NCBI GenBank assembly: GCA_963704885.1
Contig: CAVPIB010000004.1
Location: 480,001 to 544,000 of the forward strand
Source: an uncultured Actinomycetes bacterium
GTDB lineage: Bacteria; Actinomycetota; UBA4738; HRBIN12
Reading direction: 5' to 3'
Length of the DNA stretch: 64,000 bases
Below are positions 2,685-44,568 of this stretch, in pieces (position 1 is the stretch's first letter; each line of letters opens with the position of its first letter). The notes under the pieces were generated by a model. The model searched no databases, was not told the origin of the DNA, and saw only the letters and a program-made list of their open reading frames with translations. A program made the translations under genes and the position numbers.

Positions 2685-4511
2685 ATGAGGCGAGACCTGG
2701 AGCAGGCTCGGAGACTGGAGCTTGGCCTGGTCAAGCTCCGATGGCTGCTGGTGGCATACGGGCTCGTCCAGACCTTGATCGAGACGGCGGATCCGGGGGC
2801 CCCCTCGTTCGCGGTGCCTCTCGGAGGGGCCCTCACTGCGGGGTTGTTCGTTTCCAACATCCTCATCGCTCGGATCGCCCGCAAAGCGAACGACGGCCGG
2901 ACACTCGGGTGGATCGGCGTCCTGGCGTTCGTCTTGGACTCGGTGGTCATCCTGGGACTCGTCTGGGTGGCCGCTCACCACCCCGCCGACCCCGCGTGGG
3001 TGATCGTCTATCTCCTGCCTATCGAGGGTGCGATGCGCTACGGCATGCCAGGGGCGCTGGCGCCGCTGTCGGTCATCCTCCTGTCGGAGCTCGGACGAGA
3101 GCTGTCGATGGCCGCCGAGTTCCCTAGATATGCGTTCGCGACGTCCGACGTTTCGTTCAGGGTCGGGATGGCGGCCGTGATCGCCGTGGTGTCTGGGATG
3201 TTCGCGGGTTCGCTCCGTCGAGAGGCTGAACGGGCCAGCGAGCGCACGGCGATGGCGGAGGAGGCCGCCAGGCTCGCGGAAGAGGCCGCCGGGCGAGAGG
3301 CCCAGGCTCAACGGGACCTGTCCGCGTTCCACACAGCCATCCTCGCCGGGATCGCCGCCGAAGATCCGGCCGATGGGATCCAGGCCATCGCCGAGGCCGT
3401 GGGGCGCGAGCTCGGATGCTACGCACTCGGAGTGCTCCTGCTGGAACCCGTCGAAGGCGGCGGGGAACAGCTGGTATCGGCGGGGGTCTTCGGCGATCCC
3501 GGCTATGGTCGCGGAACGCGGTTCGTCGGCGGCGCCGAGCCGTTCGAAGCCGGCCCCGGTTTCTCCCGGCCGAGCCTGCACGACGATCCGGCTGAGGCCG
3601 TGGTGCCCCTACGCGCAGGAGACACGGTGATCGGGATCCTCCACGAGAAGGGAGAGGCACCCGGGGCGATCGATCGCGAGCGACTGCTCCTGCTCGGCAG
3701 GCTCGCGGACCAGGTCTCGCTGGTGATCCAGGCCGCGCGGCTTCGGTCGCGGCAGGAAGAGACGTTGACCCGGCTGAGGGAACTCGACGAGTTGAAGTCG
3801 GACTTCGTGGCGATCACGAGTCACGAACTCCGAACGCCCCTCACCGCCGTCCGGGGTTTCGTCGACGCGCTCCGCCGGCGGCAGCAGGAACTCAGCCCCG
3901 AGGAGGTGCAGGAGTACTTGTCGATCATCCACGTTCAGACCGACCGGCTGATCCGCCTGGTCGAGGACCTCCTCCTGATCTCCCGCATCGAGGCCGGCAA
4001 GCTCACGTTCGTCCCCGAGCAGGTCCAGACCGCCGAGCTACTGACCTCGGTGCGTCACGGTCTGGGAGATCTTGCGGATCGGGTCGTGATGGTCGAATCA
4101 CCTGGCATGCCCAGGGAACTGGTCGCGGATCCTCAGCGAGTGATACAGGTACTCACGAACCTCTTGATGAACGCTCTGAAGTTCTCACCGCCCGATAAAC
4201 CGGTGCATCTGGCGGCCGGTTCGTATTCCACCGGAACGGTGACCTTCGCGGTGCGCGACCGGGGATCGGGTATCCCACCGGCAGAGCTGGACTTGATCTT
4301 CGACCGATTCCACCAGAGCGAGTCCACCGCAGCGCACTCCGAAGGCGCCGGCCTGGGGCTCTACATCGCCCGACAGCTCACGGAGGCGATGGGCGGATGG
4401 ATCACCGTGGAGTCCGCGCCCGGTCACGGGGCAACCTTCACGGTGACGATCCCGACGTCCCGGACCCTCGAAGAACCCGCTCCATTGTCCGGAGCAGGGC
4501 GAGCGGGCTGA
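2685..4511 (+). CDS. Membrane sensor histidine kinase with GAF-like domain
   Basis: Several N-terminal TM segments; H-box ITSHELRTPLT, NLLMNALKFS, DRGSGIP, GAGLGLYI; start uncertain (2664 or 2685). Confidence 0.9.
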   Translation: MRRDLEQARRLELGLVKLRWLLVAYGLVQTLIETADPGAPSFAVPLGGALTAGLFVSNILIARIARKANDGRTLGWIGVLAFVLDSVVILGLVWVAAHHPADPAWVIVYLLPIEGAMRYGMPGALAPLSVILLSELGRELSMAAEFPRYAFATSDVSFRVGMAAVIAVVSGMFAGSLRREAERASERTAMAEEAARLAEEAAGREAQAQRDLSAFHTAILAGIAAEDPADGIQAIAEAVGRELGCYALGVLLLEPVEGGGEQLVSAGVFGDPGYGRGTRFVGGAEPFEAGPGFSRPSLHDDPAEAVVPLRAGDTVIGILHEKGEAPGAIDRERLLLLGRLADQVSLVIQAARLRSRQEETLTRLRELDELKSDFVAITSHELRTPLTAVRGFVDALRRRQQELSPEEVQEYLSIIHVQTDRLIRLVEDLLLISRIEAGKLTFVPEQVQTAELLTSVRHGLGDLADRVVMVESPGMPRELVADPQRVIQVLTNLLMNALKFSPPDKPVHLAAGSYSTGTVTFAVRDRGSGIPPAELDLIFDRFHQSESTAAHSEGAGLGLYIARQLTEAMGGWITVESAPGHGATFTVTIPTSRTLEEPAPLSGAGRAG

Positions 4512-4825
4512 ACGGCTTCGTGATGTAGTCGTCGGCTCCCAAGGCGAGGGCGCGCTTGCGCCCCTCTTCGCCGGTCGCGGTCACGATGACGACGAGGACG
4601 CCTTCCGTGTCCGGATCGGCCTTGAGCGCCTCGAGGACGTCGCTTCCCGACACGACCGGGATGTTCAGGTCCAAGAAGGACCACGTCGGGCGGGCGCTCC
4701 CGCGCCATCGCGATCCCGTTCTCGCCGTCCACTGCCTCCTCTACCTGGTGGCCGTCCTCCTCGAGCACCAGTCGCATCGCTTCCCTCATCGTCGGGTGAT
4801 CCTCGACGATCAGGACGTTCGCCAT
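4438..4825 (-). pseudogene. Single-domain response regulator split by a frameshift near 4675 (possible assembly error)
   Basis: MANVLIVEDH...PPDVV continues in another frame as LDLNIP...IVTATG...GADDYITKPFSP. Confidence 0.85.
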
Positions 4826-4828
4826 CGC

Positions 4829-5824
4829 CTAGCTCCGCAGCAGGCCGTCGGCGAACGCATCGGCCCGGAACGGACGGAGGTCATCGGCGCCCTCGCCGAC
4901 GCCCACGAACCGAACCGGGACGCCGAGCTCTTCGCGTACCGCCAGCACCACGCCGCCTCGCGCGGACCCATCCATCTTCGTGAGCACGACTCCGGTGACG
5001 TCGACCGCCTCGGTGAAGGCCCGCGCCTGGGCGATGCCGTTCTGTCCGGTGGTCGCATCCAACACGAGCAGGGTGTCGTCGACCTCGGCGCCGGCCTTCT
5101 GGATCACTCGCTTGACCTTGGCCAGCTCATCCATGAGCGGCGTCTTCGTGTGCAGACGACCCGCGGTGTCGACGATCAGGACATCGGAGCCTCGCGCGGT
5201 GGCCGACTTCACGGCATCGAAAGCCACGGCGCCGGGATCGGCGCCTCGCTGCTGGGAAACCACGTGGGCCCCGGTGCGCTGCGCCCAGACTTGGAGCTGC
5301 TCCCCCGCCGCAGCACGGTACGTGTCGCTCGCTGCAAGACTGACCGCGTGTCCCTGCACCGCCAACCGGCGGGCCAACTTGCCGATCGTGGTGGTCTTCC
5401 CGGATCCGTTCACGCCGACCACCAGGATGACCGCCAGCTTGTCGCGCGCCAGCTCCATCTCGCCGTCCGCCCCCAAGATCGCGATCACCTCGGTCCGGAG
5501 CAGAGCGACCGGGTCGCTGCCCACTACGAATCGTTCGCGCACGCGAGCCACCAGATCTGCCGCCCCGCGAGGCCCCACGTCCGCCCGGATCAGAAGGGCC
5601 TCCAGCGCAGACCAAGTGTCCGGCGAGATGCCGCGTCCGAAGAGGGCGCGCACGCGTTCGCCGAGCCCCGTTCCCCCTCCCGGAGCCGTGATGACATCCA
5701 TCTGTTCGTCGACGTCGGAGTCGTCTTCCACATCGAACATGAGCGCCCGGCGGCGTCGGATCACCACGACACCGGCGACCACGCAGAGGATCGCGATCGG
5801 GATGAACAGGAGGGTGATGTTCAC
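4829..5824 (-). CDS. ftsY: SRP receptor FtsY with N-terminal TM anchor
   Basis: GVNGSGKTTT, DTYRAAA, DTAGRLHTK, TKMDGSARGG. Confidence 0.96.
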   Translation of the reverse strand: MNITLLFIPIAILCVVAGVVVIRRRRALMFDVEDDSDVDEQMDVITAPGGGTGLGERVRALFGRGISPDTWSALEALLIRADVGPRGAADLVARVRERFVVGSDPVALLRTEVIAILGADGEMELARDKLAVILVVGVNGSGKTTTIGKLARRLAVQGHAVSLAASDTYRAAAGEQLQVWAQRTGAHVVSQQRGADPGAVAFDAVKSATARGSDVLIVDTAGRLHTKTPLMDELAKVKRVIQKAGAEVDDTLLVLDATTGQNGIAQARAFTEAVDVTGVVLTKMDGSARGGVVLAVREELGVPVRFVGVGEGADDLRPFRADAFADGLLRS

Positions 5825-5833
5825 GGGTCCAGG

Positions 5834-8800
5834 CTAGTGGACCGGCTCCGTCTCCGGCAGAGAGAACGTCTGGGTCTGGTCCGCGATCCGTCGCGGTTCC
5901 TCCATCTGCTGGCAGACGATCTTCGTGGTGCCGTCCTTCGAGAGCGAGACCCCGTACATCATGCCGGCGATCTCCATGGTCCGCTTCTGGTGCGTCACGA
6001 TCATCACCTGTGAATCGCGGGCGAACCCTTCGATCAATCGCAGGAACCGATGCAGGTTCACGTCGTCGAGCGCCGGCTCCACCTCGTCCATCAGATAGAA
6101 CGGACTGGGTCGAGCCGTGAAGATCGCGAACAGGAACGCCATCGCCGTGAGCGACCGTTCGCCGCCGGACAGCAGCGAGATCCGCTTGACGCGCTTGCGA
6201 CCGGGACTGGCCTCGATCTCGATCCCGCTCGTGAGCGGCTGCGCCGGATCCGTAAGTATCAACCGCCCCGAGCCACCCGGGAACAGCTCGGCGATCAGCC
6301 GCTCGAACTCACGGGCCACGTCGCGGTAAGCCTGATCGAAGGTCTCGGTGATCTCGTGATCCACCTTCGCGATCACTTCCAGGAGATCGCGCCGGGCCTT
6401 GCGGACGTCGTCCAGCTCGCGCGCCATGAAGTCGTGGCGCTCCTGCAGGGCGTCGAACTCGCCGGTCGCGAGCAGGTTGACACGACCAAGCAGCGCCAAC
6501 CGGCGCTGAACCAGCTCGGACTTCTTCTCGAGCGATCCGACCGAATCCTCCTCAGTGAGCGTCGCGAGAGCGTCTGCGGGGGCGCACTGATGGCCCTCGC
6601 GCAACAAGCGCTCCGCCTCGCCGATCCGGCGTTCGATGTCGCCGCGCAGGCGGTCCTCATCCTCGTAGGTCTCGCGGAGCCGATCGAGCTCGGTAGACGC
6701 GTCGCGCCACGCCTTGTTGACCTCGGCCTCGCGCTCGGCGGCCACACGCTCTGCCTCGGCGGCCGCGTCGCGGGCGACGGAGGCCTCGGCCGCAGACCCC
6801 TCCGCACGCCTCACGGCCTCCTCTGCATGCGCGCGGGCGTCCTCGGCGGTCTGGACCGCGGCGCGTAGCTGCACCGGATCCTGCGACGCTAGAGCATCCC
6901 GATCGGCTCGTAGGTCCACCAGGCGGGCGTCCAGCGTCGCCCGATCCCGGCGGAGCGTCTCGACCGCGACGCGGGCGGACACGGGTGGTTGGGGTCTCGG
7001 AGGAAGCTCGGGCATCTCCTCGAGGAGCGGTTCCGAGTCCGCCAGGCGCTCTCGCCACATCGCCATCCCGTCCTCGACAGAGCCCGCTCGCTGACGCAGC
7101 AACTCCTCTTCCCTGCGAACGCCGACGAGCTCGATCTCGATCCGGGCCAGACGCTCCGCTGCCGACGTGATCTCGGCATCGGCCGCATCGATCTGTTCGC
7201 CCAAGAAGGCGACCTCGCCGCCGATCTCCTCGACGCGCTCACGCTTCGGCTTGAGCACGTTGCGGGTGGCGGCCAGGTCATGCTCCAACACCTGTAGCTC
7301 CGCCCGGATCTCACGGGCACGGGCGTCGGCCACCCCTGCCGTGTGGATCACCGCGGGGCCGACCAGCACACCATCGGGCGTCACGAACGACGCCGCGGGG
7401 TGTGATGCCTGCTTCTCGGCGGCCTCCTCCACGGTATCGGCCAGGTACACGTCCCGAAGGACGGTGCTCGCGATCCCGCGCGCCACGGGTTCGGCCTCGA
7501 TGACCGAGAGCAGCGCTCTCTCGCCGCGGAGGCCGATCGGCACCGGCCCCCCGCCCGCGATCGCCAGGATGGCGCCGTCCCCCTCGGGGGCGTCGGCGAG
7601 GGCCCTGTCGCCGTCCTGGTAGACCACCGCATCTGCCAGCGGGCCGAGGGCCGCCACCAGCGCGCGCTCCAGGCCGGCCTGGATACGGACCAGATCACGC
7701 AGCGGCCCGACCGCGTGACCCTTGTGCGTCTGCAGGAACCGAGAGCCGGCCGTCTCCTCGATATCGCGCCGGCGAGCCTCCAGCAGGTCGCGCCGGGCCT
7801 GGTGCCGACGCTCCACGTCCTCGAGCTCCTCGATCTTCTCGACCAGACCCCGCCGCTCCTGGTCGAGAAGCCGGCGCCGGTCGGTGAGCGGAGATGACTG
7901 CCCATCCAGGCGTTCGATGTCCGCCTCCAGCGCGTCGCGCTCTCGTTCGAGGGCTCCCAACGCGTCCCGCGACGTCGGCGATCCCGGTCTCCAAGCGCTC
8001 GCGCTCCCGTTCGGAGGACGCCATGCTCCGCCGGAGCGCCTCCACCTCGGCCCGCCGCCCCGCGGCCTCCTCGCCCATCCGGCGACGCACGTCCTCGACC
8101 TGGCGACGACGCTCCTCCGCCAAGCTGAAGGCCTCCTCGGCCTCGGCCAGCTCTCGTTCGCCGGCCTGGAGATCGGCCAGCACCCGCGCCAGATCCTTCT
8201 CCGCCCGATCGAGCTCGCCGCGAACCGCGTCCATCCGAGCGGTACGAGATGCCTCAGCCGCCAGATCCCTCCGGGCGGCGGACTCCAGCTCGACGGCGGC
8301 CCGGAACGCCTGCTCCGAGTCGCTCCGCTCGACCTGAGCGGCGCGGAACGCCTGCTCTGCGTCTACCAGCACGCGGGAGGCCGTGGCTCGCTGGTCGGCG
8401 GCCGCCAACACGCCTCCATCCAGCTCGTCCAGCCGCGCGCGCGCGGTCTTGCGGGCCTGGAGGCCCTCGTCCCAGCCGGTCTGGCGGCGCTCCTTCTCGC
8501 GGAGGAGCGCGCGCAGCCTGGCGGCGGCCAGCTGCCGCGACAGCTCCTCGGCTTGCGCGCTCAACGTCTCGTGCTTCTTAGCCATCTCCGCCTGCTGCTG
8601 CAGCGGCTTGAGCTGGCGCCGCAGCTCGGCCAGCACGTCCTGAAGCCGGAGGAGATCTTGGTCGAGGCCCTCCAGCTTCCGCTCGGCACGTTCCTTCCGA
8701 CGGCGGTGCTTGGCTATCCCCGCGGCCTCCTCGATGTACTTGCGCCGTTCCTCCGGACGGGACAGGAGGACTTCTTCCAGCTGACCCTGCCCAACGACCG

Positions 8801-38661: not shown

Positions 38662-39819
38662 TCAGGGCATCGGAGCCGGCGCGGCGGCGTATCGATCGGC
38701 CAATCGCGCGAGGAGCGGTCCGCCCACCGCTAGGAGAAGCACGTACGCGGCCGCGATCGGTCCGATGTCCGGCTCCGCACCCGACGCGACCGCGATGCCG
38801 GCGATCACGATCGAGAACTCGCCCCTGGCGATCAGCCCGACGCCGGCGCGGATCCGACCTCGACGGCCAAGCCCAGCCCGTCTGGCGGCGAGCCATCCTG
38901 TGGCGTACTTGCTCGCGGCGCCGACGAGCGCCAGCGCACCGGCGGATGGGAGCGCGCGGGGCAGCGTTCCAGGATCGACCTCGAAGCCGAAGAACAGGAA
39001 GAACGCCGCGGCGAACACCGAGCGCAGGGGGATGAGTAGCGATCGAGCTCGACCCGCCGATGGCCCCGAGAAGGCGATCCCGGCGAGGAACGCGCCCACC
39101 GCCGCCGAGACGTTGAGCGACTGCGTCGCACCGGCTGTCAGCAGCAGGACGGCGAGGATCGCGAACAGCAGCGCTTCGTCCGAGCGGCTGAAGACTGCGC
39201 GACTGATCGCCTCACCGTAGCGAGCGGCGACCGCAAGCACGGTGAGGACGACGAGGGCAGCGATGCCGACGGAAATCGCAACGCGCCAAGGACCGCCCCC
39301 CACAAGCAACACCGTCCCGAGCGGCAGGAACCCCGCCATCGCCAGGTCCTCGATCACCAGGATCGCGAGGACGAGCGGTGTCTCGCGGTTCCCCATCCAC
39401 CCGAGGTCGTCGAGCGTTCGGGCGATGACGCCGGACGAGGAGATGTAGGTCACGCCACCCAGGAACGCCGCCGGGACAGGATCCCAACCGAGCATGATGC
39501 CGGCAATGAAGCCGGGCGTGAAGTTCAGCACCAGGTCGAGCCCGCCGACGAGCGCGGTGGAGCGGAGCGACCCCACCAGCTCACGGGCTGAGTACTCAAG
39601 CCCAAGCGAGAACAGGAGTAGGATCAGGCCGATCTCCGCTCCTGCCGCGATGAACTCGTCCGCGGTTACAAGCGGGATCACACCGCCCTGTCCGAACGCC
39701 AGACCTGCCAGCAGGTAGAGCGGGATCGGCGAGAAGCCGAATCGGGAGGCCAGCCGGGCCAGGATCGCGAGCAGCAGCACGACGCCGCCGAGCTCGATGA
39801 GGAACAGCGAGTCCTGCAC
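38662..39819 (-). CDS. CPA2 cation:proton antiporter (KhtU-like)
   Basis: SPIPLYLLAGL, LGLEYS, YISSSGVI, IARGEFSIVIA. Confidence 0.9.
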   Translation of the reverse strand: MQDSLFLIELGGVVLLLAILARLASRFGFSPIPLYLLAGLAFGQGGVIPLVTADEFIAAGAEIGLILLLFSLGLEYSARELVGSLRSTALVGGLDLVLNFTPGFIAGIMLGWDPVPAAFLGGVTYISSSGVIARTLDDLGWMGNRETPLVLAILVIEDLAMAGFLPLGTVLLVGGGPWRVAISVGIAALVVLTVLAVAARYGEAISRAVFSRSDEALLFAILAVLLLTAGATQSLNVSAAVGAFLAGIAFSGPSAGRARSLLIPLRSVFAAAFFLFFGFEVDPGTLPRALPSAGALALVGAASKYATGWLAARRAGLGRRGRIRAGVGLIARGEFSIVIAGIAVASGAEPDIGPIAAAYVLLLAVGGPLLARLADRYAAAPAPMP

Positions 39820-39822
39820 CGC

Positions 39823-40317
39823 TCAACCCGAGCGGAGTAGGATGGCGAGCTCCTCGATGCCGCGGGGCGTGCCCACCACTACGAGTACGTCCCCGCCCCG
39901 CAGTCCGAACTCTGGACCAGGTGCCGGGTTCGCCGAACCCGCGCGAAGAACCGCCACGATCGACACCCCGGTCCGCGTCCTGGCGGCCGTGTCGCCGATC
40001 GTCCGCCCGTCGAACGGCGAGGTCCCGGGGAGCGGCAGCCGATCCACGGCGAGCCCCTCGACGTCCTGCTCGAGCTCCGCGAGATCCTTGGCCACCTGGG
40101 ACACGCCCAGCAGCTCCGCGAGCGTGCGGCTGTCATCCGCGCTCAGCCGGACGAGGTCGTGCGAGGTGTCGGGATCCTCACGCTCGAAGAGCACCAGCTC
40201 CCGCATCCCCGAGCGGTGGTGGACCACGCCGACACGGGCGCCGTCCTCGGTGACGAACTCGTACCGGACGCCGATACCGGGCAACGGCGTCTCGCTAACG
40301 ATGCGCACGAATGTCAT
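39823..40317 (-). CDS. Antiporter regulatory subunit with RCK_C domain (KhtT-like)
   Basis: ETPLPGIGVRYEF..RTRTGVSIVAVLR. Confidence 0.9.
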   Translation of the reverse strand: MTFVRIVSETPLPGIGVRYEFVTEDGARVGVVHHRSGMRELVLFEREDPDTSHDLVRLSADDSRTLAELLGVSQVAKDLAELEQDVEGLAVDRLPLPGTSPFDGRTIGDTAARTRTGVSIVAVLRAGSANPAPGPEFGLRGGDVLVVVGTPRGIEELAILLRSG

Positions 40318-41670: not shown

Positions 41671-42147
41671 GTGAGCGACAGGAGGCCTTCGCGCGAGGGG
41701 TCCGGGCTCTCCGTCGGCCAACCGTTGGGACGCGCGGGCGTCGAGATTCTCGCAGCAGTTCCGCTGTTCTCGGAGTTGTCGAAGCGACGACTCCGATCGC
41801 TCTCCGACAAGGCCATGGTCGTCAGCTACGGCCCCGACCGGATCGTGCTGGGGGAGGGGGTGCGTGGGGGCGGTTCGGTGTTCGTGCTCTTAGAGGGCAC
41901 CGCCCGGGTGGTGGTCGGGAGTCGTACGATCAAACCTCTCGGCCCGGGAGACGTCTTCGGCGAGCTGTCCCTCTTGGATGGTTCACCCCGCTCGGCCAGC
42001 GTGGTCGCCGCATCATCCATCGTGACGGCTCGACTGTCGCGCACGGCCTTTCTCGATCTCATCCGGTCCGATCCGGACATCGCCTTCCACATCATGGAGA
42101 TGCTCGCCACTCGCCTGCGAGAGTGCCAGGGGAGCGGCGCGCTGTAG
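41671..42147 (+). CDS. Stand-alone cyclic-nucleotide-binding domain protein
   Basis: VPLFSEL, GPGDVFGELSLLDGSPRSASV; no HTH; start uncertain. Confidence 0.85.
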   Translation: MSDRRPSREGSGLSVGQPLGRAGVEILAAVPLFSELSKRRLRSLSDKAMVVSYGPDRIVLGEGVRGGGSVFVLLEGTARVVVGSRTIKPLGPGDVFGELSLLDGSPRSASVVAASSIVTARLSRTAFLDLIRSDPDIAFHIMEMLATRLRECQGSGAL

Positions 42148-42296
42148 CGAAGAGCCTCGATCGGGTGCCGGGTGATTGGGCACGGCGAGCAGTACTCGCC
42201 CAAACCGCCAATGAGACCGCAGCACGGAACTCGGCCCACCTTCAGCGGACCGAACGGCCCTTGCGGGTGGCGGCTCTCTCCCGGGAACATGGGTGC

Positions 42297-43418
42297 ATGA
42301 GGGTGGGGCTGCCACGCATGCACAAGGAGGCCGGGGAACGGAGGGATCTCCTACCGTCGTTCGTCGCAGCTCTATGCCGCGACGGGGCGACCGAAGTCGT
42401 GCTGGAGGATGGGTACGGCGCGGCGATGGACCTCGAACCGGTTGAATACGCTTCGATCGATCCCCGCGTGCGCTTCGCGACGTATCGCGAGGTCTTCGAA
42501 CGAGACGTCGTCGTCGTGATCCGTTGTCCCGACGAGGAGGCGATCCGTTGGATGCGACCCGGGTCGATGCTCCTGTCGATGCTGCACTTCCCGACCCGTC
42601 CATGGCGTGTTCGGCTGCTCGACGAGCTCGGGATCGGCGGACTGAGCCTCGAATCCGTGACCGACGACGCCGGACGTCGGCTCGTGGAGAACCTGCGGGC
42701 CGTCGGCTGGAACGGAGTTGAGGCAGCCTTCAAGGAGCTGGCCGCGACCCACGAGGACTTCTCACACGCAGGCCGTCGACCCCTGAGGGTGACATGCCTC
42801 GGATCGGGCGCCGTCGGAGGTCACGCGACGCACGCCGCGACCCGTTACGGCGACCCCGAACTGCGTGAGGAGCTGGTCGCGAACGACGTCCCGGGGGTCG
42901 AGGTCACGGTCGTGGACTTCGACCTCACGTGGCACGAGGACTACATGCTCGATCGGCTAGCGCGCACCGATCTCCTTATCGACGCCACCCACCGGATCGA
43001 TCCCTCGACGCCGGTGGTTCGAAACGCGTGGCTCGCGGCGCTTCCTGCGGACGCGGTCCTGCTCGACCTGGCGAGCGACCCCTACATCCCGGACGCGTAT
43101 CCGCCGATGGTCAAGGGCATCGAGGGCATCCCTCAGGGGAACCTCGACCAGTGGGTGTTCCGCATCGATGACCCCGCCTGGGATCGGCAGGACCCCGTCG
43201 TCGACGCGAGGGAGCGCCGGACCGCGCTGTCGTGCTACGCATGGCCCGGGATCCACCCGCTGAGCTGCATGGACGTCTACGGGAGCCAGTTGGAACCGCT
43301 GATGACACTGATCCTGACGGCGCCCGTCGACGGATGGGATGGCGTGGACGGTCCGTACGAGGAGCGTGCCGCCATGAGAGGGGAGCTGTCGACATGGAGA
43401 GCGGCTCTGGCCGATTGA
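42297..43418 (+). CDS. Alanine dehydrogenase/PNT-N fold oxidoreductase, paralog A
   Basis: GLPRMHKEAGERR, EDGYG, SMLHFP, Rossmann LGSGAVG. Confidence 0.8.
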   Translation: MRVGLPRMHKEAGERRDLLPSFVAALCRDGATEVVLEDGYGAAMDLEPVEYASIDPRVRFATYREVFERDVVVVIRCPDEEAIRWMRPGSMLLSMLHFPTRPWRVRLLDELGIGGLSLESVTDDAGRRLVENLRAVGWNGVEAAFKELAATHEDFSHAGRRPLRVTCLGSGAVGGHATHAATRYGDPELREELVANDVPGVEVTVVDFDLTWHEDYMLDRLARTDLLIDATHRIDPSTPVVRNAWLAALPADAVLLDLASDPYIPDAYPPMVKGIEGIPQGNLDQWVFRIDDPAWDRQDPVVDARERRTALSCYAWPGIHPLSCMDVYGSQLEPLMTLILTAPVDGWDGVDGPYEERAAMRGELSTWRAALAD

Positions 43419-44524
43419 CGGTCGGCTTCCCGCGGATGCGGAAGGAGCCAAGGGAGCGTAGGGATTTCCTTCCTCCGCTCATCGGCAAGCTCATCGACCA
43501 CGGGGCAGACATCGTGGTGGAGCGAGGGATCGGCTCCGGGATGGGCTATGAGGACTCCGACTACGCGGCCCTTGGCCCGCACATCCGATCAGGCTCGCAC
43601 GAGGACGCCTACCGGCAAGACATCGTCGTGGTCCTCCGCTGCCCGAACGACGACGAGCTGGGTCTCGTCCGGCGCGGAGCCGCCCTCGTGTCGATGCTCC
43701 ACTTCCCGACCCGTTCGGGGCGCGTCGCGCGGCTCTGTCGGCAAGGCGTCGACGCCATCGCGATGGACTGCATCGTCGACGACAGCGGCACTCGACTGGT
43801 CGAAGACAGCCGATCCGTGGCCTGGAACGGGCTCGAGGCTGCGTTCGACGCGCTCGAGCAGACCTACCCGAAGTTCCGAGACCGCGATCGGCCACCCATC
43901 CACGTGACCGTGATGGGAGCGGGGGCTATCGGGCGCCACGCGGTGGAGGCCGCCACGAAGTACGGGAAGACCGAGCGGGCGGGCGACCTCCTGTCCAGGG
44001 GCGTGCCGGGGGTGGAGGTGGTCACGGTCGGGCGCAACCTGACCGGGGACGCGCGATACATGGAGGAGCGCTTACGCGTCACCGACGTGCTGGTGGACAC
44101 CACGCTCCGATCGGATCCGAGCGTCCCGCTCGTCCCCAATGCGTCGATCGAGCTGTTGCCCGAGCATGCCGTGATATGCGACTGCGTCGTCGACCCCTAC
44201 CAGCTACACACCGACCCACCCACGGTCCGCGGGATCGAGGGCATCCCTCAGGGCGACCTGGACGGCTACGTGTTCCCGCCCGATGACCCGGCCTGGGAGC
44301 GCACGGTTCCCGACGGCGTACCGCACGAGCATCGCCGCACCGTCGTGTCGTGCTACTCGTGGCCCGGCGTCCATCCGGAGGCCTGCATGCGCCTCTACGG
44401 CGCCCAGCTCGCCCCGCTCCTCGAGACGCTGGTCGAGCGGGGAGGTGTCTCTGGACTGCGCGAGGACGGCCGGTTCCACGAGCGCGCCCTCGACCGAGCG
44501 GCCATCCGACACTGGGCCGTCTGA
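43415..44524 (+). CDS. Alanine dehydrogenase/PNT-N fold oxidoreductase, paralog B
   Basis: TTG start overlapping paralog A stop; GFPRMRKEPRERR, ERGIG, SMLHFP, MGAGAIG. Confidence 0.8.
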   Translation: MTVGFPRMRKEPRERRDFLPPLIGKLIDHGADIVVERGIGSGMGYEDSDYAALGPHIRSGSHEDAYRQDIVVVLRCPNDDELGLVRRGAALVSMLHFPTRSGRVARLCRQGVDAIAMDCIVDDSGTRLVEDSRSVAWNGLEAAFDALEQTYPKFRDRDRPPIHVTVMGAGAIGRHAVEAATKYGKTERAGDLLSRGVPGVEVVTVGRNLTGDARYMEERLRVTDVLVDTTLRSDPSVPLVPNASIELLPEHAVICDCVVDPYQLHTDPPTVRGIEGIPQGDLDGYVFPPDDPAWERTVPDGVPHEHRRTVVSCYSWPGVHPEACMRLYGAQLAPLLETLVERGGVSGLREDGRFHERALDRAAIRHWAV

Positions 44525-44540
44525 CCAGGTACTACGTGAC

Positions 44541-44568
44541 CGAGGGGCGCCCCGAAGGGCGCCCCTCG
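44541..44568. terminator. GC-rich hairpin between convergent genes
   Basis: cgaggggcgccc-cgaa-gggcgcccctcg, perfect 12-bp stem. Confidence 0.75.

Follow-up and report, generated by a model that had tools for sequence, protein, structure and literature searches.

The closest described relatives of the two adjacent genes treated here, A and B, which lie in a 64,000-nt stretch of DNA from an uncultured actinomycete (contig CAVPIB010000004.1; below, the window), are L-alanine dehydrogenase (AlaDH, EC 1.4.1.1; structures 1pjb, 2vhx and 2eez) and domain I (dI) of the transhydrogenase subunit PntA (1x13, 6qti). With AlaDH, the proteins A and B share the two-domain fold, an E-x-R motif, a His, an Asp and a length of about 370 residues. 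They differ from it in several respects: the sequences are about 20% identical, the catalytic Lys is replaced by Arg, and PMSE(V/I)AG by DDxGxRLV...VAWNG; A and B possess family motifs of their own (K/RGIEGIPxG, SCYSWPG) and a remodelled region extending from the Gly-rich strand to strand 4, and they occur as a pair consisting of an NAD-type and an NADP-type protein. PntA dI has the same fold and takes part in hydride exchange between NAD(H) and NADP(H), a role that is considered below for A and B. In contrast to PntA, A and B lack membrane helices and a PntB/dIII partner in the host genome, and the positions of a loop, which we take to be the RQD loop of dI, are not kept in the sequence alignment. 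Moreover, NADP(H) is bound in Pnt by the unrelated domain III, whereas in the arrangement proposed for A and B it would be bound by a second dI-like subunit.

Three further systems have to be compared. Saccharopine dehydrogenase (2qrj) and the LKR domain of AASS (8dda) adopt the same superfamily fold as A and B, with no sequence match. The two steps of the saccharopine pathway use NADPH and NAD+, and the second enzyme stems from another family; A and B, in contrast, are paralogs with identical conserved pockets. SthA (UdhA) performs a soluble hydride exchange between NADPH and NAD+, as proposed for A and B, but contains flavin and belongs to the pyridine-nucleotide-disulfide oxidoreductases. 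Finally, ADLP (TT_C1082) of Thermus thermophilus is presented (bioRxiv 10.1101/2025.10.31.685773) as an inactive protein of AlaDH fold with a replaced catalytic Lys, which acts together with a partner protein and senses NAD+/NADH. ADLP has Ala at the Lys site and a CoA transferase as partner, whereas in A and B this site is occupied by Arg, the remaining catalytic positions are kept, and the only constant partner of each is the other.

Gene A (42297-43418, + strand) codes for 373 aa, and gene B (43394-44524, + strand) for 376 aa if read from ATG 43394 or for 369 aa if read from TTG 43415; the numbering of B used here starts at the TTG. An alignment spanning 369 residues shows 47% identity between the two proteins (E 3e-113). 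The TGA stop codon of A occupies 43416-43418; thus, the TTG start leads to the 4-nt overlap TTGA described in an earlier note on this DNA. The alternative ATG, which is preceded by the Shine-Dalgarno-like run GAGGGGAG and is the start in the database gene call (P0003, 376 aa), extends the overlap to 25 nt (43394-43418). The motifs that the note had listed as common to both proteins (RCP, SMLHFPTR, WNG, GIEGIPQG(N/D)LD and SCY(A/S)WPG) recur in our alignment of A and B. We file A and B as an uncharacterised branch of the AlaDH superfamily, which is defined by a gene pair of NAD type and NADP type. In literature searches, whose coverage left out most subscription journals, neither this subfamily nor a pair of this kind was found described.

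Family membership and fold

Both proteins exceed the gathering cut-off (30.4 bits) of a single Pfam family, AlaDh_PNT_N (PF05222), with 45.6 bits for A and 73.5 bits for B. For the family AlaDh_PNT_C (PF01262, cut-off 23 bits), B remained below the cut-off with 20.6 bits, and no match of A was found at E values up to 1. The NCBIfam AlaDH equivalog TIGR00518 scored 39.8 bits for A and 52.3 bits for B, which has to be compared with a cut-off of 391.85 bits, and the match comprised only the N-terminal ~125 residues. Similarly, the PntA models TIGR00561 and NF006942 (cut-offs 444.4 and 383 bits) were missed with 19.7 and 31.8 bits for A, and with 55.5 and 63.6 bits for B. For the AlaDH and PntA equivalogs, the cut-offs amount to about 7 or more times the scores of A and B. 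The nearest solved structures, as determined by sequence, are those of AlaDH and PntA dI, with E values of 1e-16 for B and 1e-5 for A.

AlphaFold2 (AF2) models of both proteins were generated from 75-sequence alignments and reached pLDDT values of 93.7 (A) and 95.1 (B). The model of B has the two-domain fold of AlaDH: its comparison with 1pjb gave a VIA Z of 32.1 and a root-mean-square deviation of 2.7 Å over 320 residues. Next in rank were the mycobacterial AlaDH/PNT protein 3p2y (Z 29.0), transhydrogenase dI (6qti, Z 28.4), L-lysine-forming saccharopine dehydrogenase (2qrj, Z 26.4) and the LKR domain of human AASS (8dda, Z 24.2); for D-2-hydroxyacid dehydrogenases and others Z was at most 16.6. 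The top Foldseek match of the same model was PntA dI (E 4e-19). At the level of sequence, searches of PDB, Pfam and NCBIfam gave no match to saccharopine dehydrogenase, LKR or carboxyethyl-ornithine synthase. ESM Atlas clusters (0.92) and the names of distant relatives bear the generic labels "alanine dehydrogenase", "saccharopine dehydrogenase" and "carboxyethylornithine synthase", which can be used as leads only.

The catalytic Lys, which is part of the KEP motif of AlaDH, is an Arg in 75 of 75 A-type and in 75 of 75 B-type sequences. A and B read (I/L)RCP here, and the host's own AlaDH reads MKVKEP; the replacement of KVKEP by V(I/L)RCP, pointed out in the earlier note, is therefore real. 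Residues R16 (of ExR), H97/96 and D261/260 (A/B numbering) are invariant in both proteins and were matched to 2eez by phmmer and hmmsearch alignments; we take these positions to be the substrate Arg, the active-site His and the active-site Asp of AlaDH. The host genome contains a canonical AlaDH of 374 aa at a different place (L003 1189-2313, - strand, which is G000:C4 near 280 kb); it shows the motifs ENRVAATP, MKVKEP, YLHL, VAIVD and DISIDQGG and has an Asp at the end of β2. PntB (PF02233) gave no match in this genome, which is 97% complete and was searched apart from 16,000 bases.

Because the equivalog is missed by far, the Lys is exchanged for Arg and a canonical AlaDH exists elsewhere in the genome, A and B are not ordinary AlaDHs, in agreement with what the note had proposed: their assignment to the AlaDH/PntA-dI fold is right, their membership in AlaDH proper is wrong. 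An origin of A and B as recent, lineage-specific duplicates of an ordinary AlaDH, or of PntA, would explain the Pfam match and the fact that their relatives are named "alanine dehydrogenase". However, it would leave unexplained the three points just mentioned, the missing PntB, and the existence of the pair with a fixed cofactor-site split in three phyla (see below), and we regard it as extremely improbable. The family is large, with 3194 matches among the scored candidates of the 90% clustering and 105 representatives at 50% clustering (E ≤ 1e-30). "Alanine dehydrogenase" and "hypothetical" are the only database names found in it, and the former label is very probably wrong for thousands of these proteins.

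Cofactor sites and distribution of the pair

In Rossmann domains, an acidic strand end is the textbook mark of NAD(H) binding, and a small residue followed by Arg, together with further basic residues, is that of NADP(H) binding. In order to compare A and B in this respect, we aligned 75 A-type sequences jointly with 75 B-type ones. In this alignment, 53 columns reach a conservation of 95% or more and have the same residue in A and B; they include R16, the Arg that stands in place of Lys, H97/96 and D261/260, as well as several more arginines. The invariant arginines are R16, R101/100, R104/103, R128/127, R233/232, R307 and R308. There are only three columns (R183/K182, D207/G206 and K273/R272) which are at least 95% conserved in each subfamily but occupied by different residues, and R207 of B is the sole residue whose invariance is confined to one subfamily.

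The difference is concentrated at the dinucleotide site. The residue following GxGxxG is basic in none of the 75 A-type sequences (position 175: G, A, M, S, V or I), whereas B has Lys in 59 and Arg in 16 cases (position 174). At the first position of the strand end, A has Asp (73) or Glu (2) at position 207 and B has Gly in 75/75; at the second, A has Tyr (38), Phe (28), His (7), Glu (1) or Ala (1) at position 208 and B has Arg in 75/75; at the third, A has Asp (74) or Ala (1) at position 209 and B has Asn (68), Asp (5) or Thr (2). In the window, all on the + strand, the Gly-rich loop of A is G169-S-G-A-V-G174 followed by G175 (42801-42821; G169 and G171 are invariant), with no basic residue following, and D207-F208-D209 (42915-42923) forms the C-terminal end of strand 201-206. 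The corresponding elements of B are G168-A-G-A-I-G173 with the subsequent R174 (43916-43936) and G206-R207-N208 (44030-44038) at the C-terminal end of strand 200-205. Both strands were assigned by DSSP on the AF2 models. VTVVDFD in A and VTVGRN in B, which had been contrasted in the note, are thus present, and the conserved split expected from them turned out to be universal across three phyla.

With 75/75 sequences each way, the alignment indicates that the split between Asp/Glu-x-Asp (A) and Gly-Arg (B) is far beyond chance. The site in A displays the features of an NAD(H)-type and that in B those of an NADP(H)-type Rossmann domain, from which we infer corresponding cofactor preferences. The exchanges D198A (Shewanella) and D196A/L197R (B. 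subtilis) of AlaDH are listed as NAD-to-NADP switches in a table of PMC5817062, and the positions altered there are those that separate A from B. A and B constitute a rare natural experiment: paralogs stand side by side in three phyla, and their only systematic difference lies at the two NADH/NADPH switch positions of AlaDH.

The region between the Gly-rich strand and the strand containing DxLxDAT (strand 4) is remodelled in comparison to AlaDH. In the models of both proteins, the strand that ends with D or G-R is the only one located between these two, so that by sheet topology it would pair with strand 1, the Gly-rich strand, and would adopt the β2 position. The note had placed these residues at the end of the second strand. 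This placement is supported by the DSSP strand order of the models; the profile alignments, on the other hand, do not put D/G-R on β2. As the profile alignments of the Rossmann region to AlaDH conflict with the strand order of the models, they were not used to place the cofactor residues.

The distribution of A and B was determined in three samples. Among 41 related genomes, the family occurred in seven, each time as two adjacent matches. A phylum-wide sample contained it in 11 of 401 genomes, and in ten of these it was paired; the 11 include the unpublished G269, which was left out of further analysis. A tblastn analysis of 11 fetched regions found an A-type gene upstream and a B-type gene downstream in ten cases, the upstream genes being 54-86% identical to A and 44-49% to B, the downstream genes 57-81% identical to B. 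G327 (identical with L037) holds a B-type gene alone. Finally, a locus scan with one genome per species yielded 80 loci from metagenome-assembled genomes of Actinomycetota, from Myxococcota and from Chloroflexota/Anaerolineales. Note that the samples overlap, as several of the 80 loci belong to the same genomes as the related or the phylum-wide sample. In 78 of the 80 loci both genes are present in the order A then B. Of these, 74 are clean same-strand pairs; in the remaining four, the upstream gene is in two pieces (2) or cut by a contig end (1), or the pair is duplicated with shortened copies (1). Single genes were found in two loci, namely L078 (B-type) and L093 (A-type). The pair also occurs in a cultured organism, Archangium violaceum Cb vi76 (Myxococcota; L051). 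Locus L118 contains, at 2978-7087, two tandem A-B pairs with truncated B copies, which may be a real local duplication or an assembly artefact.

The junction of the genes, measured from the codon aligned to the first residue of B to the end of the stop codon of A, is a 4-nt one in 23 of 34 Actinomycetota, in 5 of 5 Myxococcota and in one unassigned locus; the gap between A and B in Chloroflexota has a median of 8 nt. In a maximum-likelihood tree, the 19 sampled upstream genes make up one side of a branch with support 87/99, and a clade of A plus B, including one stray representative, has support 97/98. The A half and the B half show the same division into Chloroflexota and Actinomycetota plus Myxococcota, with the Myxococcota nested among the Actinomycetota. 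Across the 74 loci, the pairwise identities among the A proteins correlate with those among the B proteins (r = 0.95); this value shows co-inheritance and not by itself interaction. These findings indicate that the A-B pair is an old conserved unit across three phyla and not a local duplication; 78 paired loci out of 80 contradict the lineage-specific duplication which the note had named as the alternative. In the vicinity of the A/B clade branches P0145 with its cluster, whose members have lost the glycines of GxGxxG (…GSSELS…); judging from this motif, proteins of this type may no longer bind a dinucleotide.

Distant full-length relatives, which are 30-39% identical, keep the core motifs of the family. 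A metagenome scan with one sister subfamily gave 80 loci (L119-L198); one of them (L179) has two adjacent copies, the rest have one, and all 45 loci that extend 1.2 kb or more in both directions have a single copy. The strand-end residues are x-Arg in 62/70 and acidic in 7/70 sequences, with Pro, Thr or Ser preceding the Arg in most cases. As members of the sister subfamilies occur in single copy and for the most part carry x-Arg, the single NADP-type state looks ancestral and the NAD-type A a derived addition. The sister loci are Clostridia-like and stem from digester and fermentation metagenomes. Their neighbours often include a sigma-54 activator (19 loci), RpiR, parts of Opp-type ABC transporters, an NhaC-like carrier and hydantoinase A/B, all labelled by reading representative sequences and not by a family scan; they hint at amino-acid-type catabolism, without naming a substrate.

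Proposed coupling of A and B

The two proteins also occur naturally as fusions. P0295 (776 aa, with 9 sequences as members) and P0015, which is N-terminally cut and 81% identical to P0295, both consist of an A-type half (…DYD…) and a B-type half (…GRN…) joined by a linker of about 25 residues. The shorter fused fragments P0123, P0249 and P0030 could have arisen as indel artefacts where the genes overlap by 4 nt. Since the gene order is conserved, the junctions overlap or span 8 nt and natural fusions occur, the sequence data favour A and B as a functional unit. No constant further partner gene was found around the 74 pair loci: the largest flank cluster comprises 9/74 loci, all of close kin, and the flanks consist of housekeeping genes that vary by lineage, such as aconitase, PFOR, glycogen synthase, adenosine deaminase and others. 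Nor do these 74 loci share transporter or pathway genes next to the pair.

For the cofactor preferences, a physical heteromer, the chemistry and the physiological role of A and B, we infer the following. Tentatively, and with a confidence somewhat short of even, we take A and B to be the two subunits of one soluble NAD(H)/NADP(H) oxidoreductase of the AlaDH/PntA-dI/saccharopine-dehydrogenase superfamily, in which the same chemistry couples both pools. The subunits would be produced in approximately equal amounts from the overlapping genes, and as a single chain in some organisms. The pocket of A would be of NAD(H) type, with its acidic strand end, which is followed two residues later by another Asp, and with no basic residue; that of B would be of NADP(H) type, with the Gly-Arg strand end and Lys or Arg after GxGxxG. 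Both would most likely catalyze the same hydride transfer and act on one common compound, which would resemble an amino or imino acid and probably be anionic. One subunit would oxidise this shared compound with NAD+ and the other would reduce the product with NADPH, or the reverse; in this way the pair would link the NADH and NADPH pools via a shared substrate/product couple, or one reaction would draw on either pool. The same reaction in A and B is favoured because the conserved pockets are alike. If A and B do work together, they would represent a new link between the two pyridine-nucleotide pools, or a new amine or opine dehydrogenase with dual cofactor use, and either role would be of interest to redox physiology and biocatalysis.

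Several observations weigh against this two-subunit oxidoreductase. The catalytic Lys of AlaDH is replaced by Arg in all 150 sequences, and an AlaDH homologue of T. thermophilus with a Lys-to-Ala replacement is an inactive NAD+ sensor (bioRxiv 10.1101/2025.10.31.685773). The host genome already encodes a soluble transhydrogenase of the SthA type (G000:C4:1085008-1086390), which scores 546.9 bits at an NCBIfam cut-off of 465 bits. The pair shows no complementarity with PntB, which occurs in 2/7 genomes with the pair and in 14/34 genomes without it (including the unpublished G029), these numbers being small and the genomes kin. The monophyly of the B clade is weak (support 55/36). Profile alignments put β2 of AlaDH on residues ~183-190 of B, which form an inserted helix, and hhalign sets the GRN of B on the start of AlaDH β3. 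Finally, single B-type (G327/L037, L078) and A-type (L093) genes exist; therefore each protein can persist alone. Three more SthA-like paralogs, each with about 282 bits, were noticed in the same genome.

A more specific role, which we consider rather unlikely though worth stating, is that of a flavin-free, membrane-independent NADPH:NAD+ transhydrogenase composed of two AlaDH/dI-fold subunits, one for NAD(H) and one for NADP(H), with the hydride passing via a tightly held substrate/product couple or directly across a new interface. If this were true, A and B would add a third type of transhydrogenase to PntAB and SthA.

The opposite cofactor signatures would also fit one reductive and one oxidative step, as in the formation and cleavage of saccharopine or another opine. 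B would then catalyze the reductive condensation of an amino acid with a 2-oxo acid using NADPH, and A would cleave the secondary amine so formed, oxidatively and with NAD+, at the opposite side of the nitrogen; in sum, an amino group would be transferred without pyridoxal phosphate. LKR and saccharopine dehydrogenase are fused in animals and plants. The structural matches of the B model to 2qrj (Z 26.4) and to the LKR domain 8dda (Z 24.2) point in this direction, and the many invariant arginines would suit a polycarboxylate substrate. However, cleaving a different C-N bond leads one to expect differences between the pockets, and outside the cofactor site not a single invariant column is specific to one subfamily, with 53 columns being identical. 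In addition, neither the PDB nor the Pfam nor the NCBIfam searches linked A or B by sequence to saccharopine dehydrogenase, LKR or carboxyethyl-ornithine synthase, and transporter or pathway genes conserved next to the pair are missing. We therefore deem such a two-step route doubtful, and favour the same reaction in both subunits over it, as the two-step route needs different substrate positioning.

Identical conserved pocket residues combined with opposite cofactor signatures are equally what one would expect of two independent isoenzymes, which do not touch each other and are kept together in order to use either cofactor for one reaction; the single-copy relatives, moreover, evidently work alone. 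The strict order of A and B, the overlapping junctions and the fusions exceed what unlinked isoenzymes need, and co-expression at a fixed ratio would anyway yield a hydride-exchange cycle. Independence of the two proteins thus appears unlikely to us.

The Arg at the Lys position (150/150 sequences) raises the question of whether A, B or both are non-catalytic sensors, which read NAD(H) and NADP(H) and regulate another protein. A precedent is ADLP of Thermus thermophilus, which has lost the catalytic Lys and regulates a CoA transferase (bioRxiv 10.1101/2025.10.31.685773). Opposed to this, Arg or Lys occupies the Lys site throughout the wider family; the His, the Asp and about 50 other positions are invariant over three phyla, which is beyond the needs of cofactor binding; and around the 74 pair loci no neighbour is conserved that might serve as the target of such regulation. 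A sensor function is accordingly improbable in our view, and the two-subunit oxidoreductase remains the reading that we put first.

The upstream cNMP gene and the surrounding locus

Upstream of the pair and on the same strand lies a gene for a stand-alone cyclic-nucleotide-binding (cNMP) domain protein (41635/41671-42147, + strand), which comprises 158-170 aa depending on the start and matches Pfam cNMP_binding with 7.9e-16, as the note had recognised. A stand-alone cNMP gene precedes the pair in 5 of 74 other pair loci, all of which are from close kin of the window's organism. In these loci (L039, L041, L042, L044, L054) the cNMP proteins have about 143 aa and are encoded 100-600 nt upstream of A; the copy of L041 is 62-66% identical to the other four. 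The protein of the window is 26% identical to the copy of its nearest relative. We conclude that the cNMP gene is a lineage-specific upstream neighbour and not a conserved part of the pair.

A three-gene system of cNMP protein, A and B under the control of a cyclic nucleotide would be in line with the gene's upstream position on the same strand, which the window shares with the five close relatives. It is, however, quite improbable: the gene is absent from 69/74 other pair loci, the window's copy has diverged to the 26% mentioned, and 150 nt separate it from A, compared with the overlap between A and B. The regulation of the pair by this protein, raised as a possibility in the note, is weakened by the same figures.

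Downstream of B, the hairpin mentioned in the note corresponds to a GC-rich element at 44541-44568 (+ strand), 17 nt past the stop codon, which consists of a perfect 12-bp stem with 11 GC pairs and a 4-nt loop. It has no T tract and was not called by a consensus terminator scan; it is likely the end of the transcription unit. The window has a GC content of ~0.67 and belongs to an assembly of 3.0 Mb. The genes flanking the locus are unrelated to it: TauE, a Na+/H+ exchanger plus a TrkA-C protein, and OsmC are located upstream, an MFS carrier and an amidase downstream. Between 45070 and 46376 (- strand), there are three overlapping pieces of open reading frames (138, 202 and 194 aa) in different frames, none of which has a Pfam family; they look like one gene split by frame shifts or assembly error, or else like spurious reading frames of high-GC DNA. 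At 38662-40317 (- strand), a gene of the Na+/H+ exchanger family is directly followed by one for a small protein with a TrkA-C domain, and these two likely form a regulated cation/proton antiporter pair.

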